Of a stretch of DNA of 64,000 nucleotides, positions 12,933-58,610 are shown piece after piece. Made by a program: the position numbers and the translations under genes. The DNA comes from Kiritimatiellia bacterium (GTDB lineage Bacteria > Verrucomicrobiota > Kiritimatiellia > CAIVKH01): contig JBDHQM010000004.1 in NCBI GenBank assembly GCA_039807095.1, positions 62,425 through 126,424 on the forward strand, in the 5' to 3' direction. The notes under the pieces are model-generated. The model saw only the letters and a list, made by a program, of their open reading frames with translations, had not been told where the DNA came from and searched no databases. Each line of letters opens with the position of its first letter. Position 1 is the first letter of the stretch.

Positions 12933-12990
12933 GACTTCCAAGGATTGGAAACCGGTCGCGAACAGACTTCCAAGGGTTGGAAGTTTTTCT
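12933..12990. repeat. REP-like intergenic element copy 1: tandem pair of ACTTCCAA-N3-TTGGAA palindromes 32 bp apart
   Basis: Sites at 12936-12950 (ttccaaggattggaa) and 12968-12982 (ttccaagggttggaa), the second followed by TTTTT. The linker between sites (aaccggtcgcgaacagactt) is also conserved with the copy at 34521-34572. Confidence 0.55.
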
Positions 12991-21738: not shown

Positions 21739-23235
21739 CTACCGCCCTCCCGCATTCACAACCTGGGGCCGGTATCCCTTCATCAGGAAATAGTACAACG
21801 CGAACGCAATGAAAAATCCGACGAACCACGCGTAGTGGTAAACACCCGTCCAGAATTCGGCAGCCGGAACCGCCACCCCCAGTGTCACGAGAAAGCCCGG
21901 CACGTTCGGCGCAATCGCCAGCACCAGCGCCACGAGCGCGCGGATGTTATAGCCGTTGGCGTAGGAGTACTCGCCGCGCGGATCATACAGCGCGCGCAGA
22001 TTCATCGTCCGCTTGCGAATCGCAAAATAGTCGCAGATCAAAATGCCGCCAATCGGCCCGAGGAGCGAAGAGTAGCCCAGCAACCACGTGAAGATGTAAC
22101 CACTCGGATCCGCCGCCAGTTTCCACGGCATCATCAAAATGCCGATGATCCCCGTAATCACGCCGCCTGCGCGCATGCTGATCGCGCGCGGAAGAAAGTT
22201 CGAGAACGCGGTCGCGGGCGCAACCACGTTCGCCGCCAGGTTCGTCGTCAGCGTTGCCAGCGACAACGCAAACATCGAGAACAGGATGATCCAGAAACTG
22301 TCGAAACGCGAAAGCAGTTCGACCGGATCCCAAATCGCCTCGCCGAAAATCACCGCCACGCCGATAAAGGCATAGAACGGCATCGTTGTGTTCAACCCGA
22401 GGAACTGCCCCCACAACTGCGCGCGCTGACTCTTCGCCTCGCGCGTGAAGTCGGGAATGTTCAGCGACAGCGTCGCCCAGAACGCCACCATCGAGGTCAA
22501 CCCCGGAATGAAAATCTTCCAGAACTCCGCCGTCGTTTTGTATTTCCCCGGCTGCGACAACATCGGCCCGAATCCATCTGCTTTGTTATACGCCCAGATG
22601 AGGAACATCAGCCCGATCCCAATCAACAGCGGCGCGCCCCAGTTCTCAATGAAGCGGATGGACTCCATCCCCCGCCAGAAAATCGCGATATTGATGAACC
22701 AGAAAACCAGGAAGGACAAAAACTGCGCCGTGTTAACCTGAATGTGCTCGTTACTGATGAACCCCCACACGGCAGTGTTCGCCAGTTCCGGCCACTTCAA
22801 TAACAGCAGCTTGTATATCGCCTCTCCGCCAATCCACGACTGGATGCCGAACCAGCCGCACGCCACAATACCGCGCAACACCGACGCGATATGTGTTCCC
22901 GCAGTTCCAAACGGCGCGCGCGCAAACACCGGGAATGTGATGCCATATTTGCAGCCCGCATGCCCGTTCAGCACAATCGGGATTAACACGATCAGATTGC
23001 CGAGCGAGACCGTCAGAATCGCCTGCCACCAGTTCATCCCCGCATGGATCAACCCGCTCGCGAGCATATACGTCGGAATGCACACCGACATGCCCACCCA
23101 GAGATTCGCGATATCTTTTGTGCCCCAGCGGCGCTTGCTAGATGGAATCGGCGCCAGATCGCCGTTGTAGAGGGGACTCGCTTCAACATACGCCAAATCT
23201 TGAGGATTCAGATCGGATTGAAGCGGGTCGGCCAT
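21739..23235 (-). CDS. NCS1-family nucleobase:cation symporter (cytosine/uracil/hydantoin permease type)
   Basis: 12-TM NCS1 signature (IPSSKRRWGTKDIANLWVGMSVCIPTYMLASGL). Start taken at MADPLQ (23235), an internal ATG of the track ORF. Confidence 0.8.
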   Translation of the reverse strand: MADPLQSDLNPQDLAYVEASPLYNGDLAPIPSSKRRWGTKDIANLWVGMSVCIPTYMLASGLIHAGMNWWQAILTVSLGNLIVLIPIVLNGHAGCKYGITFPVFARAPFGTAGTHIASVLRGIVACGWFGIQSWIGGEAIYKLLLLKWPELANTAVWGFISNEHIQVNTAQFLSFLVFWFINIAIFWRGMESIRFIENWGAPLLIGIGLMFLIWAYNKADGFGPMLSQPGKYKTTAEFWKIFIPGLTSMVAFWATLSLNIPDFTREAKSQRAQLWGQFLGLNTTMPFYAFIGVAVIFGEAIWDPVELLSRFDSFWIILFSMFALSLATLTTNLAANVVAPATAFSNFLPRAISMRAGGVITGIIGILMMPWKLAADPSGYIFTWLLGYSSLLGPIGGILICDYFAIRKRTMNLRALYDPRGEYSYANGYNIRALVALVLAIAPNVPGFLVTLGVAVPAAEFWTGVYHYAWFVGFFIAFALYYFLMKGYRPQVVNAGGR

Positions 23236-23430
23236 ATTCCTATCCCCGATATGAATCCCGGCGCCGCATCGCGCACTTCGCACGCGAGCAACACTTCTGA
23301 CGGCTCTCTCGACGCATTGTCACCTGATAAGTTTGCGCGCCAACGAAACAACCGTCAACACAAAAGGTAGGGGAAAACCTGATGCACAATTAATTGCCGA
23401 CCCATTCAGTCCGAAACGCAAAACAGAGGC

Positions 23431-23520
23431 GGGCTTGTCCGCCGGAGGCCCTGCGTAGGCGGGCTTGTCCGCCGGAGGCCCTGCGTAGGCGGGCTTGTCC
23501 GCCGGAGGCCCTGCGTAGGC
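23431..23520. repeat. Perfect tandem direct repeat, 3 x 30 bp (gggcttgtccgccggaggccctgcgtaggc)
   Basis: Three identical head-to-tail copies read directly from the sequence, with a diverged partial fourth copy following. Lies in the intergenic leader upstream of the NCS1/pyrimidine operon. Confidence 0.9.
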
Positions 23521-23567
23521 GGACCACTCTGCTGGCGGAATTATGAACCAAACAATCTCCGGGGAGC

Positions 23568-23684: not shown

Positions 23685-24452
23685 TTACTTTCGCCGCCAT
23701 GCAGTGCCTTCGGCAATGACGAGCTCGAACTTGCGCGCGTGTTCGCGGATCAAGAACGGGATGTCCTCCCGCTTTTCCAGCGTGAAGCCGGAATCGAGAA
23801 TCTCGTGCAAGCCTTTGAGGGTAGACACGGGACCTTCCTCGCCTTCGTATCCACCGATCCAATTTTCGCGCGGCGTATAAATCTGCCGCCACGTGCTCGG
23901 CGTCGTCAGCACGAGTGTGCCACCGGGCTTCACCAGTTCAAAAGCCCGCTCGAGAAAGCGCCGGGGCTCCATCATTCGGCAGATGAGATTCGCAGCGAAC
24001 ACCACATCGAACACGCCGATATCCGCGCGCAGTTCTGCCGCGTTTCCAACCTCAAAGGAAACGCGGGTAACGTCCACATCCTTCGGCGCCCACGCGGCAA
24101 ACGGCTGACGCAATTCGCCCTGAATCGGAAGCGCGTAGAGAAGCGTCTCTCGCGCGCGCAGGCGTTGCGCGGCATCAATAAAGATCGTCGCGCGATCAAT
24201 CCCGATCACTTCGTCGCAACGACGCGCCAACTCAAATGTGGATCGCCCTACGGAACAGCCGACGTCCAACGCGCGCGCGCCGCAATCGGGTACATCGCCA
24301 ACCAACTCGTTGACGCAGCGTTCGGAAAAGTTCAACACCATGCATCCGCCGAAGCCGTTCAACAGATGCAGCTCCTCCTCGGCCGCATAATGGAGCCAGA
24401 GATACTGCGCCAACGCATCGGAAGTTTCGTAGTATGACGCAGATTTCTGCAC
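23685..24452 (-). CDS. Class I SAM-dependent methyltransferase
   Basis: Motif I VLDVGCSVGRSTFELA; Rossmann MTase fold spacing. Substrate unknown. Confidence 0.7.
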   Translation of the reverse strand: MQKSASYYETSDALAQYLWLHYAAEEELHLLNGFGGCMVLNFSERCVNELVGDVPDCGARALDVGCSVGRSTFELARRCDEVIGIDRATIFIDAAQRLRARETLLYALPIQGELRQPFAAWAPKDVDVTRVSFEVGNAAELRADIGVFDVVFAANLICRMMEPRRFLERAFELVKPGGTLVLTTPSTWRQIYTPRENWIGGYEGEEGPVSTLKGLHEILDSGFTLEKREDIPFLIREHARKFELVIAEGTAWRRK

Positions 24453-28526: not shown

Positions 28527-28807
28527 ACTCTCCTCCAAACTCAAGGGAACGGGGCACAATCGCGCCAATCCCGGAAATGTCAAACAGACGTGTATATCAC
28601 GGATCACCCCCTCACGCAAGCAACCCTCAGGAGCCGCCAGGTCCATGATGTCAGCCCGGGCTTTGGACAACAGGGCGCAAACACACCGCATTTCCGGCTA
28701 TTTTTGCGTCCCGCAGCGCTCTGTCCCCCCTTCCACACAACGTGTGTTTGTCGCGCGCCTTCCAACAATTAGAATTTCTGTTTCGCCGGGCTTCCAATCC
28801 TTGTAAG

Positions 28808-34505: not shown

Positions 34506-34520
34506 CCGCCTCCGCATAAA

Positions 34521-34572
34521 AACTTCCAAGCGTTGGAAACCCGAAACGACCGAACTTCCAATCGTTGGAACT
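34521..34572. repeat. REP-like intergenic element copy 2: tandem pair of ACTTCCAA-N3-TTGGAA palindromes 32 bp apart
   Basis: Sites at 34523-34537 (ttccaagcgttggaa) and 34555-34569 (ttccaatcgttggaa). Linker aacccgaaacgaccgaactt is similar to copy 1. Lies in the 75-nt gap between the two permease genes. Confidence 0.55.
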
Positions 34573-40603: not shown

Positions 40604-40652
40604 AGCAGTAAATAAACGATGCAATTCGCTTGGCCGCTTCCTCTGCCTCCAC

Positions 40653-41636
40653 TCAAGGCGGATAAAGCCGGGTATCATTCGTGAATAGATTCCGTTTCGG
40701 ATCAAACTCCACATTCCGGTCATTCGGCGTCGGATTCAGATAATAGGTAAAACGCCCATTTATGCGCCCGCGAATCTGCCCATACAATGCGTTTGTGATC
40801 TCGCCAACCGCATTCGTTTGCGTGCGAATGCGAAAATAATACAAATCCCTTCCATCATCGTTTGTCTCTGTAACCGCGCCATCGGATCGCTCAAAGATCA
40901 AAAGACGGTTGGTATAGCCATCCGCAGGAGCCTCATACGCCGACCAGAAGTCGCTCCCAAGCTTCGCGCGAGGATTCCCATCTGGATGTCTCGCGATCAG
41001 CCCATCTGTAGCATTCGCAAACATAAACTCACATCGCGACTCATAACGAACAGCCAGCCCCGCCGCATTCGTCTCGTCAATCGTCATGCCCCACTTGAAT
41101 ATCAAATCCGAAGCGATCCCGTTGCCGTGCGGCGCAAGAAAGTCTCCCTGAACAAAGTCGTATGCGGATACTTCCTCCATCCGGTATTCACCAACCCGCT
41201 TGAAAGGAGTAATCCATTCGTTTTCAACAGTGCGGATGAACATGGGGATTTGATTCTTTTTCCTCTTCAGCACCACCGATTTCTCTATAGACCACGCCCG
41301 CACGGATTCTCCTTTCGCGTCGAGGTCATAATTATCCGCAGCAATCTCGGTTTTCAGCGTCGTTCTGTAGTAGCCTTCTTTTTGAAAGCGGGCAAACACC
41401 CCTCCTTCAGTTTCCCCTTCAACACGATACACGCCATTGCTATCCGTCAGGCCATCGAAGAAAGATCGTTTATGTGTTGAGGAAAGCTGCAAGAACTCCC
41501 CCTTTACGGAAACGCCAGAAATCGGCAATCCTGCATCATCTCGAACTACCCATGAAACAGACGCAGGAACAACCGGTTGTGCCAACGCCGAACCCACAAG
41601 AAGTGACACCAATATGCAAACTCCACAAATCTTCAT
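40653..41636 (-). CDS. Secreted paralog A1 (signal peptide + carboxypeptidase-regulatory-like beta-sandwich + conserved C-terminal domain)
   Basis: Signal peptide MKICGVCILVSLLVGSALAQP (start at the internal ATG 41636). C-terminus YYFRIRTQTNAVGEITNALYGQIRGRINGRFTYYLNPTPNDRNVEFDPKRNLFTN is shared with A2-A5. Confidence 0.75.
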   Translation of the reverse strand: MKICGVCILVSLLVGSALAQPVVPASVSWVVRDDAGLPISGVSVKGEFLQLSSTHKRSFFDGLTDSNGVYRVEGETEGGVFARFQKEGYYRTTLKTEIAADNYDLDAKGESVRAWSIEKSVVLKRKKNQIPMFIRTVENEWITPFKRVGEYRMEEVSAYDFVQGDFLAPHGNGIASDLIFKWGMTIDETNAAGLAVRYESRCEFMFANATDGLIARHPDGNPRAKLGSDFWSAYEAPADGYTNRLLIFERSDGAVTETNDDGRDLYYFRIRTQTNAVGEITNALYGQIRGRINGRFTYYLNPTPNDRNVEFDPKRNLFTNDTRLYPP

Positions 41637-41750
41637 CGCCAATCTCGGTTTTCTACAAAACTGCTTCCAGGCCTGACGCGGCATAAATCGCTTCCCGACG
41701 CACACACCTCTAGCAGCCGCTAAAACCACTGCCAACAGTCGTCAGCCTCA

Positions 41751-42728
41751 TCACGGAACACTCACCGCTTCCAGCGGAGCGAGATTCGTGAATAGATTCT
41801 GTTTCGGATCAAACTCCACATTCCGGTCATTCGGCGTCGGATTCAGATAGTAGGTAAAGCGCCCATTAATCTGCCCGATAATTTTTCCGTACAGCGCATT
41901 CGTTACGACTCCGGCTTCGTTCGTCTGCGTCCGAATGCGGAAGTAGTACAAATCGTGGCCGTCATCATTGCTCTCGGAATTGGTGCCGTTAACTTTCCAA
42001 TAGAGAGACATTCGATTCGTGTACCCGTGTGTTGGCGCCTCATACGCTGAAAGATACGCACTACCCTCATTTCGGCTGTCGCCCTTACCGCCATCCGAAA
42101 TACCTCTACAAATCCCGTCTACACCGTTCGGCATACTGATCTCCAAATTCATCTCCATGTCGAGCGCCCTCCCGGCTTTGTTTGTAGAATAAATAACCAT
42201 ATTCCAGTTGTAGCGCAGATCGCCCACAATCCCGTCTCCATGCGGCGACACGAACTGGCCATTCAAAAGGTCATACTGCGATATCGCATGAAGGCGATAT
42301 TTACCAACGCTTTCAAAGGTGGAGATGTAGGGATTCGCAACAGCCCGGCTGTACATCGGAATCGGATGCCTCATCCTTTTCAATACAACGGGAATCGTTA
42401 TATCCCAGTGACCCACCTCCACTCCCTCGCCCGGATCAAGAGGGATACTTGTAACCGTTTCGTAGTATCCCTCCGCGCGGGCACGCACACCAACCCCAAT
42501 GAGTGCCGATCCCTTCGCAACAAACACTCCATTCGTGTCCGTCACGCCCTCAAACCGATCTCGAGCGCCCGCATTGCTCACATCCCGAAAACCACCATCG
42601 AGAGAAACGCCGCCCACCGGCTGACCGCGGTCGTCACGGACAACAATCGTTGCCGTGGTTGGCACATACGGCTGGGCAAGGCCGAGCTGGGCAAGAAGGC
42701 AAAAACAAATACAAACAATACGCTTCAT
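41751..42728 (-). CDS. Secreted paralog A2
   Basis: Signal peptide MKRIVCICFCLLAQLGLAQP; N-terminal ...VVRDDRGQPVGGVSLDG...TDTNGVF (CarbopepD_reg-like); C-terminal YYLNPTPNDRNVEFDPKQNLFTN. Confidence 0.8.
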   Translation of the reverse strand: MKRIVCICFCLLAQLGLAQPYVPTTATIVVRDDRGQPVGGVSLDGGFRDVSNAGARDRFEGVTDTNGVFVAKGSALIGVGVRARAEGYYETVTSIPLDPGEGVEVGHWDITIPVVLKRMRHPIPMYSRAVANPYISTFESVGKYRLHAISQYDLLNGQFVSPHGDGIVGDLRYNWNMVIYSTNKAGRALDMEMNLEISMPNGVDGICRGISDGGKGDSRNEGSAYLSAYEAPTHGYTNRMSLYWKVNGTNSESNDDGHDLYYFRIRTQTNEAGVVTNALYGKIIGQINGRFTYYLNPTPNDRNVEFDPKQNLFTNLAPLEAVSVP

Positions 42729-42756
42729 CTGGCTTTTCCCTCTGTCCTCCGCTCAC

Positions 42757-43740
42757 TCAAGGCGAATAGGCTCGATCATCATTCGTAAATAGATTCTGCT
42801 TCGGATCAAACTCCACATTCCGGTCATTCGGCGTCGGATTCAGATAGTAAACAAAGCCTATATGTGCCGTTTTCGAATCTCGCGCATCGAATTGGATGGG
42901 ACCCTTGATTTTGCCGTAATGCGCGTATAGCAGCCGCCCTTCTTCATCAACCACACTGCGCACACGAAAGAAATAGCCGAGGCAGTCCTGCGGTTGCGTC
43001 TGATAGTAGCCCGTTTCGGGAATATAACCGATACTGCTCGTCCAGATGTTTGAATACGATGACTGGGGAGCTGTACGCGGCAGGCGGAAAAACGACCCCT
43101 TCGGCCCTGCGTCTTGAATTATTTGGATGCCATCCGCCGGACCCGCGAACTGCAACACAAGTTGTGCTTCAAAATCCCTCCAATCGGTGACTCGTCGCGT
43201 TAACGTCAACAAAAAATCGCCAATCTCCCCGCTCCCATACGGAGCGACCCAGTCTCCGATCAGCAGGTCATACCCGACGGGCTCGCCCGCAGCAGGCAGT
43301 TCGCTTTCAATTGGGATTCGTTTCGCATACATCGGAGCCGGGGCAATAATTTTTCGCAATGTAATGGAGACCTCTGTATTCCACGGCTCCCATCGCCCTC
43401 TAACCGCATTTGTAAATACGATTTCAATTCCCTTCGTTGGGTAGTAGCCATCTTTTTGAGCAGCGCACGTCACCAACGAGTTGCCGACGGCCTCGGCAGA
43501 AAACAATCCATTCGAATCGGTTTGCCCCTGAATTGAAAACGGCCGAATGCCCCATCCCTCTCCGGCGGGAATGTTTTTACTGAATTCCACACTCGCCAAG
43601 GCGTCGGCAACCGGAGCGCCTTCCTCATCCACGACCCTTGCGACAATCCTCGCGTTTAAACGCCTAATCTGAGCCAAGGATTCGAAAGGCAATCCCGACG
43701 CAAAAACAATTGCGACAACGAGCAAGACTCTAAGTTTCAA
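42757..43740 (-). CDS. Secreted paralog A3
   Basis: Signal peptide MKLRVLLVVAIVFASGL; ARVVDEEGAPVADALASVEF...GQTDSNGLFSAEA; C-terminal YYLNPTPNDRNVEFDPKQNLFTNDDRAYSP. Confidence 0.8.
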   Translation of the reverse strand: MKLRVLLVVAIVFASGLPFESLAQIRRLNARIVARVVDEEGAPVADALASVEFSKNIPAGEGWGIRPFSIQGQTDSNGLFSAEAVGNSLVTCAAQKDGYYPTKGIEIVFTNAVRGRWEPWNTEVSITLRKIIAPAPMYAKRIPIESELPAAGEPVGYDLLIGDWVAPYGSGEIGDFLLTLTRRVTDWRDFEAQLVLQFAGPADGIQIIQDAGPKGSFFRLPRTAPQSSYSNIWTSSIGYIPETGYYQTQPQDCLGYFFRVRSVVDEEGRLLYAHYGKIKGPIQFDARDSKTAHIGFVYYLNPTPNDRNVEFDPKQNLFTNDDRAYSP

Positions 43741-43831
43741 GGTCCCTCTCCAGCCATTTGCTGTGACTTATTTCGTTTGTTCATTGGTCGTTCTGTTTTG
43801 GGGGAGATTCAATGACAGCCGGTCAAACATC

Positions 43832-44821
43832 TCACGGCGCGCGCACTTCCTCCAGCGAGGAGAGACTTGTGAGGAGATTCTGCTCCGGATCAAACTCCAC
43901 ATTCCGGTCATTCGGCGTCGGGTTCAAGTAGTACAGGAAGGAGATACGCGCATTCTCACGCGCAAGACCAGAGACCAGAAAGGCTCCATAAATCTTCCCG
44001 TACTGGGTACGAATAATGCCTCCTTTTTCGTCAACTTCTGATCGCACCCGAAAAAAGTAGTTGGGCCGAGAGTCATCTCCAACGTCTCCATACCCGCCTT
44101 CCCCGGGGGTCCGACCCCACCGAACGACAATATTGCTCCTATAGCCATCAATCGGCGGTATCGGGGACAGCCGCAGAGCGCTCCCTCCTGCAGCAATTAT
44201 ATCCGCCTCCAAGATGCCGTTCTCCACCCCCGGGACGCTGACGATCAACGTGCTCTCGTAGTCATCTTCGTTTGTAATGCGGCGCTTAAGTTCGATGACA
44301 ATGTCTGCACAAATGCCCTCCCCTCGAGGCTGAACCCAATCGCCTTTTTCCAGATCATAAGCACATGGCGCACCCACTTCCGGGATTAAAGTGTCAACAC
44401 GCTTGGCAAACATCGGGATTGGATTGCCGACCCTGTGCAACACGGCAGTTACCGCATTCTTGTCGGGATCAAATGGCTGCCAGGGGCCATTACCTTCTTC
44501 TCCCAGACGATAGAAATACAGTTGTTTCGACCACGAATAGTAGCCTTCCCTTCTCGCGCTGACCCCTATTGATCCCGCGCCTGTCGCACTTGCCCTAAAA
44601 AACCCCGCCGCGTCAGTTGTCCCCTTGATGTTTTGCCCCCTGTGATCTCCAATCCATGCGTTACCACCCTGATCAAAGCCCGCACCTATCGTCGCATTCG
44701 CAACGGGCCTCGCATCATCATCAACAACGCGAACGGTCACACTCAACCGAGCAGGTTGCTGGCCCCAGGCAAACAGCCCAACAATGAAATAGAGCAAAAT
44801 TGTGCTAACAAGTTTCTTCAC
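43832..44821 (-). CDS. Secreted paralog A4 (GTG start)
   Basis: MKKLVSTILLYFIVGLFAWGQ signal peptide; VRVVDDDARPVANATIGAGF...TDAAGFFRA; C-terminal YYLNPTPNDRNVEFDPEQNLLTSLSSLEEVRAP. Confidence 0.8.
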   Translation of the reverse strand: MKKLVSTILLYFIVGLFAWGQQPARLSVTVRVVDDDARPVANATIGAGFDQGGNAWIGDHRGQNIKGTTDAAGFFRASATGAGSIGVSARREGYYSWSKQLYFYRLGEEGNGPWQPFDPDKNAVTAVLHRVGNPIPMFAKRVDTLIPEVGAPCAYDLEKGDWVQPRGEGICADIVIELKRRITNEDDYESTLIVSVPGVENGILEADIIAAGGSALRLSPIPPIDGYRSNIVVRWGRTPGEGGYGDVGDDSRPNYFFRVRSEVDEKGGIIRTQYGKIYGAFLVSGLARENARISFLYYLNPTPNDRNVEFDPEQNLLTSLSSLEEVRAP

Positions 44822-44825
44822 TGAT

Positions 44826-44996
44826 TCACCTCTCCCACTTGGCGAAACGCATCAAACAGTTTGTAAATATAGAAGTAGGCCATGTCCTTCAAATCACTAT
44901 GGAGCCAACGGGTATCGTAGGCCCCTCTAGCACGCCCCCAGCCGTTCAGATTTCTCGCTCCATCCGCCTGCAGATAATATTCAAGCCGAAACATCA
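44826..44996 (-). pseudogene. Relic copy 3 of the 3' end of the alpha/beta-hydrolase gene (56-aa ORF)
   Basis: My translation MFRLEYYLQADGARNLNGWGRARGAYDTRWLHSDLKDMAYFYIYKLFDAFRQVGEV aligns with the hydrolase C-terminus IGWPRRDNDWRHSDIKDIAYPFTFRIFDKITQDGGLQ. Lies 4 nt 5' of A4, mirroring the hydrolase/A5 junction. Below the ORF-track size cutoff. Confidence 0.55.
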
Positions 44997-45010
44997 CTAC
45001 CGGCGAAGGA

Positions 45011-46069
45011 TTATGGTCCGCCCTCAGCCGTCTTTTCTTTCGCCGCCCTAATCACCTTTGGAAGGTCAGCCTTGTTCGGGCGATTGCCGGCCATGATTTC
45101 GGCTCTCGCCTCCTTCGTCAGTTGTTCTCGCAACTGCCACAAGGGTTCGAGTTCCGCGTTGGGTTCCAGACTCCGGTCACCATAGGGATTCGACGCCGAT
45201 TCGTAAGAGACCACACAGGAATCGGGACGGAGAGAGTAGCTCATATCAAAGCGCGTATACACCGATGGGGCTCGCGTGCGCAGATACAGGTAGCGCGGGA
45301 AGTCCTGATCGTGAACTCCGTCTAAGACATATTCCGACACATATCCGGAGGCCGGAGCCTCAAAGAGAAGCGCATTGGTCGCGATCAGTCCGTCGCCATT
45401 TTCGGACGTGCGATAGGTAACGCGCCATGCGCCAGTCGTGCCAATATTTTCAAGTCGGATTTCCAAATCGGCATAGAACGCCGACTGTGGTTGATTCGTC
45501 GCTTCGGCAATTGGCAAGGTCTTACGCCGGAAGAGGTCAAACCGCTTAGCAGCAGGATGTCCGGCCGACGATCGCGCCAATTCGGCCGCATCCGTCATCA
45601 GAAATACTGACTCCCCAGTCTTGTGCAAGCGCACAACGATGCGCCTTGTTGGTGATGTCCGGTTGTTCTTTAGGTCGTCACTTGTAATGCCTCCGAAATC
45701 CTGTTGCTTCATGCTGAACACGTAGCCGTCACGCCTTGCCTCCCGGACCGTCGCACGCATTGCCCTCTGCCTAAACTCCCACTTGCCGTGTTCGTCTGTC
45801 GTGATCCACCGCTTGCTCATCGGGCCGGGAAATGGCGTGGAAAACTCCTGCCAATGAAGTAGCACCTCAGCACCACCCACGGGTTCGTCATTCTGGTCCA
45901 CAACGGCTCCGTAGATGTGTATCTCACGCCGTTTCCATTGTTCGATTTCGGCCTCCCTCTTATCCTCTGCGACGGTGCCCAACCCCTCCGAGCGTGCTAA
46001 ATCGGCGCTTAGTGAGATCAAACCAGAAAGACAAAGAATCAGCCCAAGGTTTGCGCGCGTTATTTTCAT
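45011..46069 (-). CDS. Secreted paralog B1 (family B: signal peptide + CarbopepD_reg-like domain + C-terminal domain with Lys-rich tail)
   Basis: Signal peptide MKITRANLGLILCLSGLISLSADLA; IHIYGAVVDQNDEPVGGAEVLLHWQEF; C-terminus ...SNPYGDRSLEPNAELEP...KADLPKVIRAAKEKTAEGGP. Shares NPxxDRN[VL]E with family A. Confidence 0.75.
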   Translation of the reverse strand: MKITRANLGLILCLSGLISLSADLARSEGLGTVAEDKREAEIEQWKRREIHIYGAVVDQNDEPVGGAEVLLHWQEFSTPFPGPMSKRWITTDEHGKWEFRQRAMRATVREARRDGYVFSMKQQDFGGITSDDLKNNRTSPTRRIVVRLHKTGESVFLMTDAAELARSSAGHPAAKRFDLFRRKTLPIAEATNQPQSAFYADLEIRLENIGTTGAWRVTYRTSENGDGLIATNALLFEAPASGYVSEYVLDGVHDQDFPRYLYLRTRAPSVYTRFDMSYSLRPDSCVVSYESASNPYGDRSLEPNAELEPLWQLREQLTKEARAEIMAGNRPNKADLPKVIRAAKEKTAEGGP

Positions 46070-46093
46070 GCTCCGATCTGTTCCGTCGTCACA

Positions 46094-46309
46094 TTAGGGG
46101 TTTAGGAGCGTGGAAACAAAATTGCAATCTTTCCGAACCTGTTCCCAGAACTTCCGTTGTTCGGGTATCGAGAACCTGAATTCTTTGCTGTGGAAGTAGT
46201 ATTCTTCATCGTACAGCATCCCTCTTTTCAGATCCCAAGACTCGAACTGCCCAGAAGCAACAGGAGTCTGCCCAAGGGCTTTGGAACGTGATTCGGCGAT
46301 GTAGGACAA
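46094..46309 (-). pseudogene. Relic copy 1 of the hydrolase 3' end (71-aa ORF)
   Basis: ESRSKALGQTPVASGQFESWDLKRGMLYDEEYYFHSKEFRFSIPEQRKFWEQVRKD aligns with relic 2 (ESRSRALGTESAVNGFGIHRNLEDWGYNAAHYSHSREFRSNVADEWLFWRTFFRD) and with the hydrolase C-terminal ~80 aa. Lies 24 nt 5' of B1. Confidence 0.55.
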
Positions 46310-46708
46310 GATGGTCCACAGGTCGCGAGCCGTATTTACACTATAGACATTCCAGATATCGCCAACTACGCCTCTGACAAACCGGAATGTCCTCCACCGT
46401 TGAATCGAGCTGTCCCATTGACCAAGGCCGTCTCACATCGCCAGGCGCGCGCTCTCGTTGTTGCTCCGCACGTGCTGGAGGAAGTCGGACCTGCACCGGC
46501 GTAATTCAAGTTTTTTCGCTGCCTTCCCGCACACGTGTAGCGGTTTCCCACTTCGGGGATACATGAATTCACGGGGCTGCCTCCTTCCGTGTCGAAAGCG
46601 ATAAGGAAGCGCACGGCACCCAAAATGTCGCCGCATTTTTTCTTGGATGCGTGCGAAGCGACGTACGACGGCACGAGTCTGCGCAAGTAGGCGTAGTGCC
46701 GGAGGAGA

Positions 46709-47806
46709 TCACGGCTTGCCTTTGTCCACCTTGTCCTTTGCTTCCTTGATCAGCTTCCGAATGTCGGGTTTTGGGGGGCGTTTACTCTGACGGAAGGCCG
46801 TCTTCGTCTCGTCGGTGAGTTGCTTCGTTACCTCGTAGGGAAGGTCGGTCGCCTGCTCAAGATTCCGGTCGCCGTAGGGATTGGTAACGGACTTACCGCT
46901 GATCCGAAAGAACCGCTCGTTCGCGTTGATGTGCTCGATCTCAAGGCGCGTGTAAATGGCCGGATCACGGCTCTTGATATAGACATACTTCGCCGCCACG
47001 GGTTTTCGATCCTGGGGCGTGAAGGTGTATTCCGGCTGATAGCCCACATCCGGTGCTTCGTACAGCAACTGTTCGGATACGAGGATTCCGCCGTCGGTGT
47101 CCCCCGGCGACAGAATGACGGTCCACATTATATCGTTCGTGTTGAGTGTAGCCTTGACTTGAAGGTCACAGACGAGAACCTCGTCATTTAAGACAGGCTT
47201 TGCCAGATCGCGCAGTGGTTCTTGACGAATAAAATCGTATCCCCGCAGCCTCCCGGAGTCCTTCATCAAAACCTGAGAGTCCCAGTACCTCACCTCGAGA
47301 CAGAAGGTTGGTTCGCCTTGCTTTCTCAAGCGGAAAATGACGGGCGAATCTTTCGCGGGAGTAAAGGGACGTTGAATGACCCCCTCACGCACAGAATACA
47401 CAAATGCGTTATTTCCATTCTGTGATCTAATGTATTCGTATCCCGTTTTTGATACTCCCTTGATGTAAACACTTCGCCCCTTTTCGCCTTTGAGCACAAA
47501 TGATCCTGCCACGTCTGTCTGGATATTAACGGATTTGGCCTTCCCGAACAACTCGTCCATGGCCGGACTGAACTGAGTAATCTGAATATCAACCGATGCT
47601 CCTTCGACTGGCATGTTGTATTGATCCAGGACTTTACCATAGAACACGATGTCCATATCCTGTTTTCGGAGCACTTCTTTCATCCGTAACATCTTGTCCT
47701 CGTCTGCTTTGCGATCTATAACCGCATGGTCGCTTTGAGCAAAGACCGATACAGCCAGAACGAGAGAACATAGAAAACCAACTGCGTAAGTTCGTTGTTT
47801 CATCAT
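46709..47806 (-). CDS. Secreted paralog B2
   Basis: Signal peptide MMKQRTYAVGFLCSLVLAVSVFAQ; IVFYGKVLDQYNMPVEGASVDIQITQF; C-terminus ...TNPYGDRNLEQATDLPYEV...KPDIRKLIKEAKDKVDKGKP. Paralogous to B1. Confidence 0.75.
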   Translation of the reverse strand: MMKQRTYAVGFLCSLVLAVSVFAQSDHAVIDRKADEDKMLRMKEVLRKQDMDIVFYGKVLDQYNMPVEGASVDIQITQFSPAMDELFGKAKSVNIQTDVAGSFVLKGEKGRSVYIKGVSKTGYEYIRSQNGNNAFVYSVREGVIQRPFTPAKDSPVIFRLRKQGEPTFCLEVRYWDSQVLMKDSGRLRGYDFIRQEPLRDLAKPVLNDEVLVCDLQVKATLNTNDIMWTVILSPGDTDGGILVSEQLLYEAPDVGYQPEYTFTPQDRKPVAAKYVYIKSRDPAIYTRLEIEHINANERFFRISGKSVTNPYGDRNLEQATDLPYEVTKQLTDETKTAFRQSKRPPKPDIRKLIKEAKDKVDKGKP

Positions 47807-48138
47807 GGGTGCTCCATTGACCCGGTAAGGCTAGCATCGCGAAAAAAAGTACGCCAAAACAACCATTCATCAGCGACGTTTGATCGAAACTCCCTGCTGT
47901 GGGAATAGTGTGCAGCGTTGTATCCCCAGTCCTCTAGATTTCTGTGGATCCCAAAGCCGTTCACTGCCGATTCCGTCCCCAACGCTCTAGATCGTGACTC
48001 CACGATTTGGGCAAAGATTTCAAATCGATTAGCGGGAATGACCAACGTACGCTCGTCAAACGGCAGCAGGCTGTCGTAATAGAAACGGTCGCCAGAGGCG
48101 GGAGCGTCCGACGCGAGTGAGAGTAAGCGACCAAGCAT
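47803..48138 (-). pseudogene. Relic copy 2 of the hydrolase 3' end (111-aa ORF)
   Basis: Aligns along ~100 aa with the hydrolase C-terminus (DSAIYRRLLADAIPALSNPMGRNALSGFG...HSDIKDIAYPFTFRIFD vs DRFYYDSLLPFD...RSRALGTESAVNGFG...HSREFRSNVADEWLFWRTFFRD). Overlaps the B2 start by 4 nt (ATGA), as the hydrolase does with A5. Confidence 0.55.
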
Positions 48139-48167
48139 AACGAACGACTAACGGGAGCAGAGACACG

Positions 48168-49157
48168 TCACGGCGCCCGCACTTCCTCCAGCGCGGAGAG
48201 ATTCGTGAAGAGGTTCCTCGTCGGATCAAATTCGACGTTTCGATCATTGGGCGTCGGATTCAGATAGTAGGTGAACGTCAGGCTGCCATAGTCGAATCTG
48301 GAGAAGTCGCCATGGATTTTCCCATACAGGGCGTTGACGATGTTTCCATTGTCGTCCTTCTTCGTGCGCACGCGGAAAAAGTAGTTCTGGTCTTCACTGG
48401 TTCCTGTTGACGACCTTTCCGGGTGTTCAAAGGCATTCTTGACGAGATTGGCCATGTAGCCTGTTTCGGGCGCTTCTCGCGGTAGCCGCAACGCGCTTCC
48501 GCGAGAGGGTGGAACCAGAATGGATTGAATACCGTCCCCATCATTGGAAAAGGTGATTGTCAGCGTCGTGTCGTGGATCTGATATCCGCTCGCAGTCTTA
48601 CCTCCAACTTGACGATGGAGCGTCATGATAAAGTCCGGCGTTGCGCCACGACCGTTTGGCACAACCCAGTCGCCCTTCATCAAGTCGAACCCGATCGGCT
48701 GTCCGTCGGCTGGCATTCTGGCATCACGGATCCATTTGGCATACATCGGTATCGGTTTGCCGATGCGCTTCAACAGAACCTCCACAGTAGGATTCCACGG
48801 CTCCCATCTTTGCTTGAGTGTTCCAACGTAGTTCGTGAAGAGGAGTTTGTAACCGCTACTCCAGTAGTAACCGTCTTTGCCCACCGCGACTCCCGCCTCG
48901 CCCTGGCATGTTTCCTGAACAATACAAAGCCCGTTCGTACCGGTGACGCCTTGCCACTTCTTTTCCCTCCCTCCACCCCAACCCCAACCCGGCTTGATTG
49001 ACTCCACGAAACCCGCGTGAACCTCGGCGTTCGTCACGAGCGAGCCGGTCTCATCTATCACTCGAACGGTGAACATCGCTTTCGGTTCTGCTCGCGAGTT
49101 TAGGGAAAAGACAACAAAGCAAATCAAGCCAAGGCTTGCCCTTGTAAAAAAGCTCAT
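48168..49157 (-). CDS. Secreted paralog A5 (translationally coupled to the upstream hydrolase gene)
   Basis: Signal peptide MSFFTRASLGLICFVVFSLNSRA; C-terminus YFFRVRTKKDDNGNIVNALYGKIHGDF...FTYYLNPTPNDRNVEFDPTRNLFTNLSALEEVRAP. Start overlaps the hydrolase stop by 4 nt. Confidence 0.8.
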   Translation of the reverse strand: MSFFTRASLGLICFVVFSLNSRAEPKAMFTVRVIDETGSLVTNAEVHAGFVESIKPGWGWGGGREKKWQGVTGTNGLCIVQETCQGEAGVAVGKDGYYWSSGYKLLFTNYVGTLKQRWEPWNPTVEVLLKRIGKPIPMYAKWIRDARMPADGQPIGFDLMKGDWVVPNGRGATPDFIMTLHRQVGGKTASGYQIHDTTLTITFSNDGDGIQSILVPPSRGSALRLPREAPETGYMANLVKNAFEHPERSSTGTSEDQNYFFRVRTKKDDNGNIVNALYGKIHGDFSRFDYGSLTFTYYLNPTPNDRNVEFDPTRNLFTNLSALEEVRAP

Positions 49158-54433: not shown

Positions 54434-54691
54434 CTATCCGCGATAAATCACAGCCGCCACACCGCGCCGCGCGGTAGCTCTCATTGCGTCGGCTGCGGTC
54501 GAAAAGCGCGCGTGCCTGAAGTACTCCGCATCGGCGGGTCTGATTGTCGCCGACGGATGCGGCTTGACCCGCACAACCTTCGGCAGACGTTTCGCCCGTC
54601 CGGCACCGCCCGCAGGCAGTGCGAGAAATGCACACGCGACCGATGCGGCCCCGAGCATTTTGACGAAATTTCTACGCGAAAGAGAAGTCAT
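54434..54691 (-). CDS. Small (~85 aa) twin-arginine-signal secreted protein
   Basis: MTSLSRRNFVKMLGAASVACAFLALPAG matches the Tat consensus S-R-R-x-F-[LV]-K followed by an h-region. The track ORF starts further upstream at 54742. Confidence 0.45.
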   Translation of the reverse strand: MTSLSRRNFVKMLGAASVACAFLALPAGGAGRAKRLPKVVRVKPHPSATIRPADAEYFRHARFSTAADAMRATARRGVAAVIYRG

Positions 54692-54977
54692 ACGCTCTAA
54701 TAAAACGGTATATCGCGCAAAATCAATCTCTTTTCCGGACAAATTTATTTCTTTTTGTTACCTCCTTGGCAACAGCGCGTTACTACGCATTATCGAGCGA
54801 CGATTTCAAGAAATTTCGCAAATTTCAGGCTCGATTACGTAGACGCGCTTCAGCATTTTGACGAAAACCATAGCCATCATGATGCACGGGAGAAGCAGCC
54901 TCCTCCGTGTCGCCCGCAGCCGATATTCGGAGCAGAACCCGCCAGAGGCGGGCGGAAGAATGCGTCGCAGCTCCGCT

Positions 54978-55394
54978 CTCCCGCGCAGCGGAGTGCGCGG
55001 GCCACCTATGCGCGGTTATTCGTGTCTGTCGCCGCCCTGTTGAAGGCGGTGGTGGATTGATGAGGACGAGTCGCGATCGCGATTGCGATCGGGATAAAAC
55101 AATGCGCTGTGTATTCGCTTTCCCGCGCAGCGGAGTGCGCGGGCCACCTATGCACGATTATTCGCGCCTGGCGTCGCCCTCGCCGAGGGCAGAGGTGGAT
55201 TTGAGTCGCGATCGCGATTGCGATCGGGATAAAACAATGCGCTGTGTATTCGCCTTCCCGCGCAGCGGAGTGCGCGGGCCACCTACGCGCGATTATTCGC
55301 GCCTGGAGCCGCCCTCGCTGAGGGCGGTGGTAGATTGACGGAGACGAGTCGCGAGTCGCGATCGCGATTGCGATCGTGATAAAACAATGCGCTG
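54978..55394. repeat. Three tandem ~135-142-bp direct repeats, each containing two GC-rich hairpins
   Basis: Units start at 54978, 55120 and 55255 (cccgcgcagcggagtgcgcgggccacctatgc...), ~90% identical. Conserved hairpins cccgcgc-agcggagt-gcgcggg and ccgccct-cgctg-agggcgg, and a conserved tail cgcgatcgcgattgcgatcgggataaaacaatgcgctgtgtattcgc. ORFs 55006..55494(-) and 54907..55338(+) are repeat artefacts. Confidence 0.85.
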
Positions 55395-55496
55395 TAGATC
55401 CGCTTGTCTGCCGTATTTCGCACAGCGCTGAAGGCAAAGAAATTCTTAGACTAAAACGCTTCACCTTCGAAACTCGTCGCGCTATACTCTGCACTT

Positions 55497-58400
55497 ATGC
55501 AGAGGGGTGTACGACATGGTTTGTTCGTTCTGCTGAGCTGTCTGGTTGCGTGGGCCGCACCGGCGAAGGCACAGTCATATTTCCCATCGCCCGATGACTG
55601 GCGCGATCAAAACTTCTACTTCATCTTCACCGACCGCTTCAATGATGGCGACCCATCCAACAACAACGCCAATCCCCAATCGAGTTCAAGCCCTGCGAAC
55701 AGCCGACGCATCCACGGTGGGGACTTCAAGGGGATACAGGACAAGCTGCACTACATAAAAGCGCTCGGCGCGACTGCGCTCTGGATCACGCCGATTCCCC
55801 AAAATTACGGAAACGCCGGCTACCACGGCTACGGCGCGGACGACTTTTATACGCTTCAGCCAAACTGGGGTACGACGAACGACCTCAAAAACCTCGTCAA
55901 CGCCGCGCACGAACTCGGCATCTATGTCTGTCTCGACATCGTTCTAAACCATCAGGGCGACCGGATTGACAGCGCGAATAACGCGTGGAACACGACCTTC
56001 AACATAAACGGCTATACACCGCGTTGGCGAAGCGGCAAGGCGTATCCCGCTCCGTTCAACCTGCTCACTAACTTCCACAACAACGGGATCATTAAAAACT
56101 ACACCGACCCGGAGCAAATCCTCGGCGAGCTGAGCGGCCTCGACGATCTGCGCACGGAGACGGAATACGTCCGAACCAACCTCGTCGAAATCTACAAACA
56201 CTGGATCGCGGTCGCGGACTTCGACGGATTCCGCCTCGACACCGTCAAGCACGTGGATATCGGCGCGTGGCAACACTTCAATCCAGCGATTCGCGCGTAC
56301 GCCAACTCGATTGGCAAAACGAACTTCTTCCAGTTCGGCGAAGTATTCGATGGCGACGACAACAAGACGGGGTACTACACCGGAACGAAGGCCGGCGGCG
56401 CATTCGCAAACGATTCCGTTCTCGATTATCCACTCTACTTCCGCGTCAACAGTGTCTTTGCCGAAGTGTCGGGCAACACGAAGCAGATCGAAGACCGCTA
56501 CAACGCCATCGCGAGCAAATACGACCCTTACGCGCAGTCCCGCCTGGTCACCTTCCTCGACAATCACGACCAGTCGCGCTTCATGAATAAGGCGGCCAAC
56601 GACACAAACCGTCTCGCCCTCGCCCTCTCCTGGCTCTACACCAGCCGCGGCATCCCCTGCCTCTACTACGGCACGGAACAGAACTTCAACGGCAGTGGCG
56701 ATCCAAACAACCGCGAGGACATGTTTGCGGGCCGCTTCGAACCATCCGCACCCTCCGTCGGCGACAACTTCAACATGACGCAGGGCTCCTTCCTTCACAT
56801 CGCGCGACTGAACAACCTGCGTCGCCTCTACCCGAGTCTGCGCCGGGGCGATCACCACAACCTCTGGGCCAACTCGTCCGGCCCCGGCCTCTTCGCGTAT
56901 GCGCGGCGCCTTGGAGACGAAGAAGTGTTCATTGCCTTCAACACGGCCGCCGCAACCCAAACTCTCCCGCAGCGGCCAACCTATTATTCAGCAGGCACCG
57001 TGATGGTGAATCTCTTCAACACAAATGAAACCCTCATCGTCCTCTCCGGCAACGACGGAATGCCGTCCATGTCCATCCCCGCGCGCGGCTATAAGATATT
57101 TTTGCCGAAGACTCGCGTCTTGCCGATGGACCCGCTTGTGATTCAACAGGCGCCTGCGCACGACTCAACCAACATCGTCGCCACCACGCCCATCACGCTG
57201 ACATTCAGCGAGCCGATGGACACGAATGCCACTCAATCGGCGTTTTCCGTGACACCGTCTGCTTCGGGCTCGTTTGCATGGGCTTCCAACAACACAGTGA
57301 TGACGTTCACGCCCAGCCCCGGACTTGCGGGCAAAACATCCATTGTCGTGCGCGTGAGTACCAACGCGTTCGCCGCAGAATCCGGAAATCATCTCTTCGG
57401 CGCCTTCGAGACGCGTTTCTTCACTTCATCCGCTGTCTACACCGATGCTGTTCCGCCCACCATCCTCGTACAGGCACCCGGCAACGGCACACTCACGAAT
57501 GGCATCTTCTCCGTCACCGGCACCGCAACGGACAATGTCGCAATTGCCTCCGTCGAGATTCAAATAGACGGTGGCGACTGGTATCCCGCCACCGGCACCA
57601 CCTCCTGGACTTACACCCTCGACTCCCGGAACTTCCTCAATGGAATGCGCCACATCGCTGCGCGCGCGCGCGACTCATCGGGAAATCTCTCGCCGATCAG
57701 CTCTATTGATCTCCGCTTTTTCAATATCCCCGGCAGCTACGAAGTGCGCATCAATGCAGGCAGCGCCACCGCCGCCACAAACTGTGACAGCCTTGTTTGG
57801 CAAGCCGATCAGACATGGAGCCCCGGCTCGTTCGGCTATGTCAACGGCGACGTCGGCTTCATCGGCAACACCATTTCGAACATCTGCGCAAGTGCGCAAC
57901 AAATGTATCAGAGCGAACGCTATAGCCCGGCGGACGGCACGCTCGACTATCGCTTCGATGTCCCCGAAGGCTTCTACGAAATCACACTCCTTCAAGCTGA
58001 AACCTGGGTAGACGCCCCGGGCGAGCGCGTCTTTGATGTATACATTGAAAACGAACGCGTTCTCCCCGATTTCGACATCTTCGCAGCCGCTGGCGGCAAA
58101 AACCTCGCCATCCAGCTCGTCGTCACCAGTGTGGTCAGCGACGCACATCTCGACATCGAGTTCAAACCCTGGACCGACAACGCGCGCATTTCCGGCATCG
58201 CTGTAAAGAAAACCGGCGATATTGACACCGACGGCGACGGCATTCCTGACTGGTGGCTGCGCGGCTGGTTCGATCACCCCACCGGTCAGGACGCGGATCA
58301 ATCAAAGGCGCACCAGGATGCGGATGGCGACGGCTATAGCAACTTTGAAGAGTACATCGCCGGATCCTCACCCATTAACGACGGCAGCCTCCCGGCCATC

Positions 58401-58610
58401 AGCGCCATTACCGCGAACCAGCACCCCGCTGTTACGGCTCCCGGGATCAGTGGCCGCCTCTACGATCTTCAATGGAAAGCCGACCTCTCCACCACCGATG
58501 ATTGGATCACCGTTCGCAGCGGTCAGCCCGGCCTCGGCTCGCCCCTTCTCATCGAAGACACCAACGCTCCGCCCCACGGCGCCTATCGCCTGCGCATCCG
58601 CCTGCCCTGA
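55497..58610 (+). CDS. Secreted GH13 alpha-amylase-family enzyme with Ig-like domains, a malectin-like carbohydrate-binding domain and a C-terminal TSP3-type calcium-binding repeat region
   Basis: Signal peptide. GH13 conserved regions (GGDFKGIQDKLHYIKALGATALWITP, LDIVLNHQG, GFRLDTVKH, EVFDGD, FLDNHD). Malectin-like segment (INAGSATAATNCDSLVWQADQTW...YRFDVPEGFYEITLLQAETW...RVFDVYIE). DTDGDGIPD / DADGDGYSN repeats. Confidence 0.85.
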   Translation: MQRGVRHGLFVLLSCLVAWAAPAKAQSYFPSPDDWRDQNFYFIFTDRFNDGDPSNNNANPQSSSSPANSRRIHGGDFKGIQDKLHYIKALGATALWITPIPQNYGNAGYHGYGADDFYTLQPNWGTTNDLKNLVNAAHELGIYVCLDIVLNHQGDRIDSANNAWNTTFNINGYTPRWRSGKAYPAPFNLLTNFHNNGIIKNYTDPEQILGELSGLDDLRTETEYVRTNLVEIYKHWIAVADFDGFRLDTVKHVDIGAWQHFNPAIRAYANSIGKTNFFQFGEVFDGDDNKTGYYTGTKAGGAFANDSVLDYPLYFRVNSVFAEVSGNTKQIEDRYNAIASKYDPYAQSRLVTFLDNHDQSRFMNKAANDTNRLALALSWLYTSRGIPCLYYGTEQNFNGSGDPNNREDMFAGRFEPSAPSVGDNFNMTQGSFLHIARLNNLRRLYPSLRRGDHHNLWANSSGPGLFAYARRLGDEEVFIAFNTAAATQTLPQRPTYYSAGTVMVNLFNTNETLIVLSGNDGMPSMSIPARGYKIFLPKTRVLPMDPLVIQQAPAHDSTNIVATTPITLTFSEPMDTNATQSAFSVTPSASGSFAWASNNTVMTFTPSPGLAGKTSIVVRVSTNAFAAESGNHLFGAFETRFFTSSAVYTDAVPPTILVQAPGNGTLTNGIFSVTGTATDNVAIASVEIQIDGGDWYPATGTTSWTYTLDSRNFLNGMRHIAARARDSSGNLSPISSIDLRFFNIPGSYEVRINAGSATAATNCDSLVWQADQTWSPGSFGYVNGDVGFIGNTISNICASAQQMYQSERYSPADGTLDYRFDVPEGFYEITLLQAETWVDAPGERVFDVYIENERVLPDFDIFAAAGGKNLAIQLVVTSVVSDAHLDIEFKPWTDNARISGIAVKKTGDIDTDGDGIPDWWLRGWFDHPTGQDADQSKAHQDADGDGYSNFEEYIAGSSPINDGSLPAISAITANQHPAVTAPGISGRLYDLQWKADLSTTDDWITVRSGQPGLGSPLLIEDTNAPPHGAYRLRIRLP

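Follow-up and report, generated by a model that had tools for sequence, protein, structure and literature searches.

A three-unit palindromic array between divergent genes of a Kiritimatiellae MAG, probably a cluster of GTGG-tagged REP sequences

The spacer between two divergent loci of a Kiritimatiellae MAG, one of them headed by a Tat-signal ORF and the other encoding a GH13 amylase, carries three head-to-tail, non-coding repeats that are probably a REP cluster: a GTGG-tagged REP singleton that has been reiterated three times along with the palindrome-rich DNA adjoining it. Such clusters are a long-known class of repeat and this one is new only as a family member in the Kiritimatiellae, for which the literature that we searched contains no description of repeats of this kind. 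The main value of the assignment is that it guards against misreading hairpin-bearing units between two carbohydrate-related loci as tandem regulatory RNAs. It also documents a GTGG-tagged REP family with in-frame gene insertions in uncultured Kiritimatiellae and Lentisphaeria-like PVC bacteria, and the array itself would be an example of a REP singleton amplified head-to-tail together with a long linker.

Results

Within the window, by which we mean the whole 64-kb stretch of DNA that was analysed, the array occupies positions 54974-55395 and consists of 2.9-3.1 copies of a unit of 135-150 bp with pairwise identities of 84-92%. Tandem Repeats Finder (TRF) delimits it as 54974-55368 (period 135, 2.9 copies, 84% matches, 5% indels, score 543). 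A three-way alignment puts the unit bounds at about 54974-55112, 55113-55246 and 55247-55395, with a mean column identity of 89% and pairwise identities of 84%, 84% and 92%; the units measure 142, 135 and about 150 nt, and their starts are 142 and 135 nt apart. Both a 29-mer around hairpin 1 and a 40-mer covering hairpin 4 and the tail occur exactly three times in the 64-kb window, and neither was matched in any of 100 shuffles (0/100 each). TRF, alignment and motif counts thus bear out the preliminary description of this DNA, which had reported three tandem, structured units of ~135 bp and ~90% identity. It had also stated that the repeats fill the intergenic region, which is not the case: the array covers only 54974-55395 of 54692-55496, and about 280 nt of non-repeated intergenic DNA lie to its left and 100 nt to its right. 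Homology to the tail of the unit continues a little beyond the array, for ~20 nt leftward (54956-54979, the left junction, where a diverged tail-like AAGAATGCGTCGCAGCTCCGCTCT precedes the first REP copy) and for ~25 nt rightward (55396-55420). The Logan contig L003 begins within unit 3, an instance of how arrays of this kind can break up an assembly from short reads.

There are four GC-rich palindromes in each unit (H1 to H4); the two GC hairpins and the tail originally reported are all present, but the number of palindromes had been underestimated. H1 has the sequence CCCGCGCAGCGGAGTGCGCGGG. H2 (GCGCGATTATTCGCGC) has the perfect form GCGCGA-TTAT-TCGCGC, which is that of unit 3 (55287-55302), while unit 1 (GCGCGGTTATTCGTGT, 55010-55025) has a G-T wobble at three positions and unit 2 (55152-55167) a single A-C mismatch. 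H3 (CCGCCCTCGCTGAGGGCGG) is found at 55031-55049, 55174-55192 and 55309-55327, the last with the arms CCGCCCTC and GAGGGCGG around the loop GCT. H4 (CGATCGCGATTGCGATCG), which can be written as the hairpin CGATCGC-GATT-GCGATCG, is a degenerate (TCGCGA)4 hexanucleotide run (TRF period 6) that includes a 12-bp palindrome, TCGCGATCGCGA; it lies at 55071-55095 in unit 1, 55206-55230 in unit 2 and 55349-55380 in unit 3, where it has an additional copy of the 7-mer GAGTCGC, as the alignment also shows. After the hairpins of the unit comes GGATAAAACAATGCGCTGTGTATTCGC. The A+T-containing tail is GGGATAAAACAATGCGCTGTGTATTCGC, with the version GTGATAAAACAATGCGCTGTAGATCCGC in unit 3. In unit 1 (GATAAAACAATGCGCTGTGTATTCGCTTT, 55093-55121) it runs into the next REP, in unit 2 it occupies 55228-55256, and in unit 3 (55378-55420) it passes into the degenerate start of a fourth unit, which is the right duplication junction.

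The conservation of these parts is strongly uneven (Fisher p = 1.6e-9). The block formed by the REP and its tag has no variable column (0/29) and that of H4 and the tail only one (1/29), as against 31/68 in the middle portion of H2, H3 and linker. In other words, the units have diverged by 8-16% while their REP and (TCGCGA)n-tail blocks have stayed near-invariant. Each unit has one TCGCGATCGCGA palindrome, and the rest of the window has none; when up to one mismatch is allowed, the window has 7 matches against 1.6 expected, and 6 of the 7 are within the array.

Taken with its 3' flank, H1 reads AGGTGG-CCCGCGCA-CTCCGC-TGCGCGGG on the minus strand, a 28-nt sequence with an 8-bp stem and a 6-nt loop. 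Its three copies, at 54980-55007, 55122-55149 and 55257-55284 (all minus strand), are identical. The hallmark of REP sequences is a GC-rich palindrome whose foot is preceded, on its 5' side, by the tetranucleotide GT(A/G)G (PMC3333891, PMC3733652), and 3/3 copies in the window have this tag. Folded as DNA, the 28-mer gives -10.7 kcal/mol (z = -2.7), as befits a stem-loop palindrome in the REP size range of 20-40 nt. The preliminary description had set REPs aside on grounds of length; this is correct for the 135-bp unit as a whole, but the unit contains a 28-nt GTGG-tagged REP. GTAG-type REPs have been reported in the PVC superphylum, with a GTGG tag in the Opitutus terrae family GTAG-20, and a type of cluster in which a singleton is repeated in tandem along with its flanks has been described (PMC3733652). 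REPs are typically extragenic, and the copies in the window and at loci L002 and L006 are intergenic; those at locus L010 are intragenic and in frame, as has been reported for O. terrae (PMC3733652).

The array also has the tandem multiplication of a mosaic unit, with well-conserved copies, that is characteristic of BIMEs (2.9 copies, 84-92% identity). A classical BIME would have REPs of alternating orientation separated by linkers, but here all three lie on one strand. Within the 64-kb window there is no further copy of the REP outside the array; REPs usually have more than 100 dispersed copies in one genome, and the dispersal of this one is observed across other contigs only. A genome with REPs would be expected to encode a cognate RAYT (REP-associated tyrosine transposase, of the Y1/HUH class), as a rule with REPs on either side of the gene. 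No RAYT or Y1 transposase was detected when six-frame translations of the window (~64 kb of the genome) and of the REP loci were searched by phmmer for relatives of E. coli RayT and of a Kiritimatiellae Y1_Tnp fragment. A truncated Y1_Tnp is carried by the relative L019.

Copies at other loci were sought in 185,579 species genomes and in the JGI metagenomes, with the 22-nt hairpin alone as the query. This gave two matches in the species genomes and ten metagenome loci, and 10/12 of these independent external matches continue with the CCACC tag, which was absent from the query; past the tag the flanks are unrelated. The full 28-mer is identical in L002, L006-L013 and L015, and L014 has a 27-mer. 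The Kitasatospora match (L001) is without the CCACC tag and lies within a longer unrelated palindrome, so we have treated it as a chance match. At L008, L009, L010, L013 and L014 an inverted partner, AGGTGGCCCG...CGGG, is situated 15-60 nt from the exact copy. The Ga0316226 contigs (1.6-5.4 kb) have 2-4 members of the REP family each, and it is only there that the orientations alternate. At L010 the REP is in frame at two sites within a PBP1C gene and encodes RAAECAGH twice; at one site the REP is beside its inverted partner and at the other there is a head-to-tail pair. The nearest PBP1C homologue in the search (77% alignment identity) is gapped at both of these sites. The best named relatives of the L010 protein come from Lentisphaeria, Verrucomicrobia and Kiritimatiellaeota MAGs, which indicates that the REP family lives in PVC bacteria; across distinct PVC lineages (58-71% G+C) the 28-nt REP is 100% conserved. 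The 28-mer is, to judge from these sequences, an apparently mobile, dispersed palindrome family with presence/absence differences inside a conserved gene.

More than the REP is shared with locus L006. This contig of 56 kb, which belongs to the metagenome assembly that also contains the 81%-identical amylase homologue, has REP, H2 and H3 once (nhmmer E = 4e-17; 86% identity over 78 nt), in a version nearest to unit 1, in particular to the H3 of that unit, with a second H3-like hairpin ~100 nt upstream and both in a 640-nt spacer. Locus L002 has GCGCTGTG-N10-REP in common with the window. In the viral contigs and the loci fetched around the REP matches, neither H4 nor the tail occurs elsewhere, and the same is true of H2 beyond L006; consequently, most of the unit is without a demonstrated link to a mobile element. 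A phage origin of the array was rejected, since the viral contigs have no match to the REP, H4 or the tail. A GTAG-tagged hairpin forms another tandem array in the window, at 23427-23522 (30 nt x 3.2, 100% identical), and a relative of this hairpin occurs in L002 beside the REP of that locus.

The genes on either side of the array are those that had been described: on the minus strand the Tat-signal ORF, the TPR protein and the alpha/beta-hydrolase, and on the plus strand the GH13 amylase. The 85-aa Tat-signal ORF (54434-54691, minus), the first gene of the TPR/hydrolase operon, is conserved in L017 (5588-5845). The GH13 alpha-amylase (55497-58610, plus) has Big_5, Big_7 and Malectin domains. 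In front of it, at 55454-55496 (plus) and outside the array, stands the promoter-like AAAACGC TTCACC-17-TATACT, 8 nt before the ATG. The arrangement AAAACGCTTCACC-17-TATACT-8-ATG is common to the amylase homologues L004 and L005 (81% and 78% identity), whose repeat-free upstream spacers are just 132 and 60 nt long. The presence of this promoter-like sequence within short spacers free of repeats places the amylase promoter close to the gene and the array upstream of its -35, and the amylase mRNA is probably leaderless. On the other side a promoter-like TTGATT-17-TTATTA (54698-54726, minus), read by eye and below the threshold of the promoter scan, ends 6 nt before the ATG of the Tat ORF. Its proximal part is conserved in L017, where the upstream spacer is only about 100 nt and the shared sequence is ...CCG(T/C)TTTATT(A/C)GAGCG(T/C)ATGACTTC. 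The conservation of these start-adjacent sequences points to leaderless transcription of the genes on both sides.

In L017 and L019 the divergent neighbour of the TPR operon is PNP_UDP_1, with neither an amylase nor an array, and a search of the window for a remnant of PNP_UDP_1 found none. The ~700 nt between the two promoter-like sites are thus best seen as lineage-specific extra DNA. The suggestion that the repeats occupy both promoter regions is not upheld: the array lies between the two start-adjacent promoter-like sites and outside both, and the relatives have no array. As far as sequence can show, the array does not regulate its neighbours.

The repeats had been put forward as a structured RNA with compensatory-looking changes, and neither point was sustained. 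The Rfam check that had been proposed for this reading gave no match at gathering score in the window, and at E <= 10 nothing in the region 54600-55600 rose above noise (E > 4, with scores well short of the gathering threshold). Scans found no tRNA or tmRNA in the window, and within the units neither strand has a site resembling a promoter or a terminator; terminator-like elements of hairpin and T-run are present elsewhere in the window. The folding z-scores of units 1-3 (-1.5, -1.6 and -3.2 for the plus strand; -1.9, -2.5 and -3.5 for the minus strand) are alike on both strands, as expected for DNA palindromes. The supposedly compensatory H2 variants prove to be G-U pairs in unit 1 and an A-C mismatch in unit 2. 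When pairs were counted over the three units and L006, H1 was invariant and three both-sided changes appeared, all of them from the L006 row and two of the three in H4, where the alignment of L006 is doubtful; none separates the local units. With only four sequences in this count, the absence of compensatory changes is weak negative evidence only. A riboswitch or 5' leader was rejected because the conserved amylase promoter-like sequence is downstream of the array.

Several other classes of element were rejected as well. Coding potential was dismissed, since Pfam has no match to the ORFs at 55006-55494 (minus), 54907-55338 (plus) and 54755-55060 (plus) and a start-to-start distance of 142 nt does not preserve the reading frame, and the original view of the repeats as non-coding and palindrome-rich is supported. 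The array is not a CRISPR, for the entire 135-bp unit is homologous between copies and there are no unique spacers; the middles of the units align with each other, just as the claimed lack of CRISPR-like variable spacers implied. Iterons were rejected on anatomy (whole unit homologous between copies), as were integron attC sites (no cassettes, unit homologous throughout) and a diversity-generating retroelement (differences between copies not adenine-specific). The alternative of a MITE-like element, also raised in the preliminary description, pointed in the right direction insofar as the core of the unit is a dispersed palindrome of REP type, but terminal inverted repeats were not found: an inverted-repeat scan of 54693-55496 recovered only internal palindromes matching themselves. 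One weak inverted pair (16 nt, 81%), at 54791-54806 and 55471-55486, overlaps the amylase promoter.

Discussion

If the array is a REP cluster, as seems probable, the segment that was repeated would be the 28-nt REP with about 107 nt of neighbouring palindrome-rich DNA. A REP-bearing segment may have landed in, or already occupied, a neutral zone between the back-to-back promoters and would then have been amplified, either by slipped-strand or unequal recombination or by strand transfer by a REP transposase. The hexamer run and the duplicated 7-mer make slippage or unequal recombination plausible here, and strand transfer by RAYTs has been proposed for tandem BIMEs (PMC3333891). The copies may have been homogenised with one another, or the REP may be constrained, for example through recognition by a RAYT or a host protein; either could explain the invariance of the REP and H4-tail blocks. 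If the array affects its host at all, it would probably do so as REPs and BIMEs do in general, with hairpin- or cruciform-prone DNA that binds gyrase or nucleoid proteins and buffers supercoiling, in this instance between divergent promoters; binding of this kind and supercoil buffering are the generic effects described for such elements (PMC2817692, PMC3333891). A dedicated RNA regulator at the array is not indicated. The H4-tail block could have a function of its own, one that the REP-cluster explanation does not name, because the conservation is so uneven (1/29 versus 31/68 variable columns). Several further points count against a REP cluster: the window has no copy of the REP outside the array, no RAYT was detected in the window or the REP loci, the three REPs share one orientation, most of the unit is unlinked to any mobile element, and the location is between divergent genes, whereas REP clusters are usually downstream of genes.

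One opposing possibility, that of tandem sRNA genes or a structured cis-regulatory RNA with a four-hairpin transcript per unit regulating the amylase and/or the hydrolase operon, appears very unlikely to us. Such a transcript would account for the four stable hairpins of each unit (with a plus-strand z of -3.2 in unit 3), for the plus-strand pairing of the unit 1 H2 variant, which is kept on that strand only by means of G-U, and for two invariant blocks in an otherwise diverged unit; moreover, a sigma-70-like match upstream (54766-54793, plus) could read through the array. It is at odds, however, with an Rfam search that gave nothing beyond noise at E <= 10, with folding that is equal or better on the minus strand, and with units devoid of promoter- or terminator-like sites in DNA where hairpin-plus-T-run sites are used elsewhere. 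Nor do the local copies show a both-sided change, and the H2 change of unit 2 breaks a plus-strand pair. Finally, the apparently leaderless amylase, with its promoter-like site downstream, means that the array is not the 5' UTR of this gene, homologous loci are without the array, and hairpin 1 also exists in frame inside a protein-coding gene, the PBP1C of L010.

Two further readings leave the array as DNA. One is a plain local minisatellite (VNTR), in which replication slippage would have duplicated a piece of unique intergenic DNA; hairpins and REP match would then be coincidental, and neither a mobile element nor a function would be involved. This reading is unlikely, though it fits the lack of further copies, even partial ones, in the 64-kb window, the fact that H2, H4 and the tail are unmatched elsewhere in the DNA searched, the relatives without an array, and a locus made prone to slippage by its (TCGCGA)n run and the additional 7-mer of unit 3. 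What tells against it is that the 28-mer and its tag are identical at about ten unrelated loci, with REP-style inverted pairing and insertion polymorphism, so the REP is not incidental unique DNA; REP, H2 and H3 are shared with L006, and the conservation along the unit is far from uniform. The other reading is an array of protein-binding sites, in which a transcription factor, gyrase or a nucleoid protein would attach to, for example, TCGCGATCGCGA or the REP, and selection would have favoured the array as a control element or insulator for the divergent promoters. It draws on the perfect TCGCGATCGCGA in every unit and its excess of near-matches, on the invariant blocks, on the position between back-to-back promoter-like sites and on the precedent of E. 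coli, where BIME-2 arrays are binding sites for DNA gyrase and BIME-1 linkers for IHF (PMC2817692, PMC3333891). We nevertheless consider it distinctly improbable: no regulator gene was found beside the array, the homologous promoters of the relatives have no such array, and the 135-150 nt spacing has no simple phasing with the DNA helix. Furthermore, it overlaps the generic role that REPs would have within the explanation that we prefer. A bolder version, for which we see a similarly slim chance, would make the invariant blocks a selected protein-binding or transcribed module and the 28-nt REP the mark either of a REP system that spreads by horizontal transfer or of a conserved site for a host factor, co-opted in the Kiritimatiellae as an insulator or regulator between leaderless divergent promoters.

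As a REP cluster, the array most resembles the O. terrae families GTAG-17 to GTAG-20 (Di Nocera et al. 2013, PMC3733652). Like it, they have a GC-rich 8-bp stem-loop with a GT(A/G)G tag at its foot, they occur as singletons, inverted dimers and groups with in-frame intragenic insertions, and their clusters are singletons in tandem with flanking DNA. The differences are that the host of the array is a Kiritimatiellae MAG, that its REP could be assigned to none of the published O. terrae families by a search of the supplements of that paper, which hold no matching DNA or peptide, and that it has no copy outside the array in 64 kb. With BIME-2 and the atypical BIMEs of E. coli (Bachellier / Gilson; Ton-Hoang 2012, PMC3333891) the array shares a mosaic of REP and linker in tandem at one locus, an extragenic position and well-conserved copies that are candidate sites for gyrase or nucleoid proteins. 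However, BIME units have two opposed REPs and recur every 70-100 nt, whereas the unit here has one REP and 107 nt of palindromes with a period of 135-150 nt; BIMEs are also usually downstream of genes, and the array is between divergent ones. The REPs of the Ga0316226 contigs, inverted doublets 15-60 nt apart, have the layout of REPINs (Bertels & Rainey 2011, PMC3116915; Nunvar 2010, PMC2817692). Unlike REPINs and doublets mobilised by RAYTs, the array in the window has no inverted partner, and there is no RAYT in the window or the REP loci.

There is, lastly, a likeness to the MIRU-VNTRs of mycobacteria, since the array too is intergenic, head-to-tail, non-coding and absent from relatives. 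MIRU-VNTRs are non-coding units of 40-150 bp that stand head-to-tail between genes and that relatives lack or have in variable form. To our knowledge, MIRUs are not built around a GTAG/GTGG-tagged palindrome common to other genomes, whereas the Kiritimatiellae array is.

REP insertions within a penicillin-binding protein gene

The same REP that recurs in the array is also found within a coding sequence, the PBP1C gene of contig L010 (144-2708, minus strand; product P0121), where it makes two in-frame insertions and gives rise to the residues ...RAAECAGH...; one of the two is a REP pair arranged head-to-tail. The closest homologue of this product, P0122 (alignment identity 77%), has gaps at both insertion sites, and AAECAG is present at the second of them in P0124.

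Promoter-like sites flanking the array

Both genes that flank the array, as well as their homologues, have a -10-like hexamer just 6-8 nt ahead of the ATG and no Shine-Dalgarno sequence. These promoter-like sites lie at 55454-55496 and 54692-54726 in the window, at L004 9940-10000 and L005 9940-9984 for the amylase homologues, and at L017 5540-5590 for a homologue of the TPR operon; a AAAACGCTTCAC motif is kept 5' of all three amylase homologues. Because the hexamer is so close to a start codon that has no Shine-Dalgarno sequence, the arrangement suggests leaderless mRNAs in these Kiritimatiellae.

Other repeats and possible mobile elements

The amylase-bearing short-read contig L003 (Logan SRR19427039) starts within REP copy 3, at window position 55256, and thus the short-read assembly broke in the array. 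In the Kiritimatiellae relative L019, a truncated IS200/RAYT-like Y1_Tnp gene (9863-10473; Pfam E = 1.5e-5) lies immediately 3' of the TPR-operon homologue; its 5' end is partially duplicated and its flanks carry repeated GAAGAGTAGGGC motifs.

The window has another tandem array at 23427-23522, consisting of 3.2 copies of a 30-nt unit that are 100% identical, each a GTAG-tagged hairpin (GTAG GCGGGC TTGT CCGCC GGAGGCCCTGC). This array sits between two minus-strand genes, next to the 3' end of one for a methyltransferase (23685-24452) and the start of one for a cytosine/purine permease (21739-23283). A relative of this unit (L002 441-505) adjoins the GTGG REP copy of L002. Elsewhere on that contig, a tmRNA 3' fragment (1013-1075, minus; Rfam RF00023, E = 6e-11, under the gathering score) adjoins a putative tyrosine-integrase ORF from 1217 onward, and the upstream spacer is rich in repeats, including 205-nt direct repeats. 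This region looks like a mobile-element integration site. L002 is labelled Sandaracinaceae, yet it has two repeat families in common with the Kiritimatiellae window, and its binning may therefore be wrong.

A 115-nt segment occurs five times within 40637-48275 (72-77% identity), at the ends of a series of paralogous minus-strand genes of ~330 aa, which form a tandem gene family with no relation to the REP array. A weak 16-nt inverted repeat (81%; 54791-54806 / 55471-55486), whose right arm is inside the amylase promoter spacer, encloses the entire non-promoter spacer and is probably due to chance.

Finally, a family of terminator-like hairpins, CTTCCAAGGGTTGGAAG followed by TTTTT, is dispersed in both orientations (12935-12988, 28759-28807 and 34518-34538). 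The source genome thus has conventional hairpin and T-run sites, and from these the array hairpins differ.
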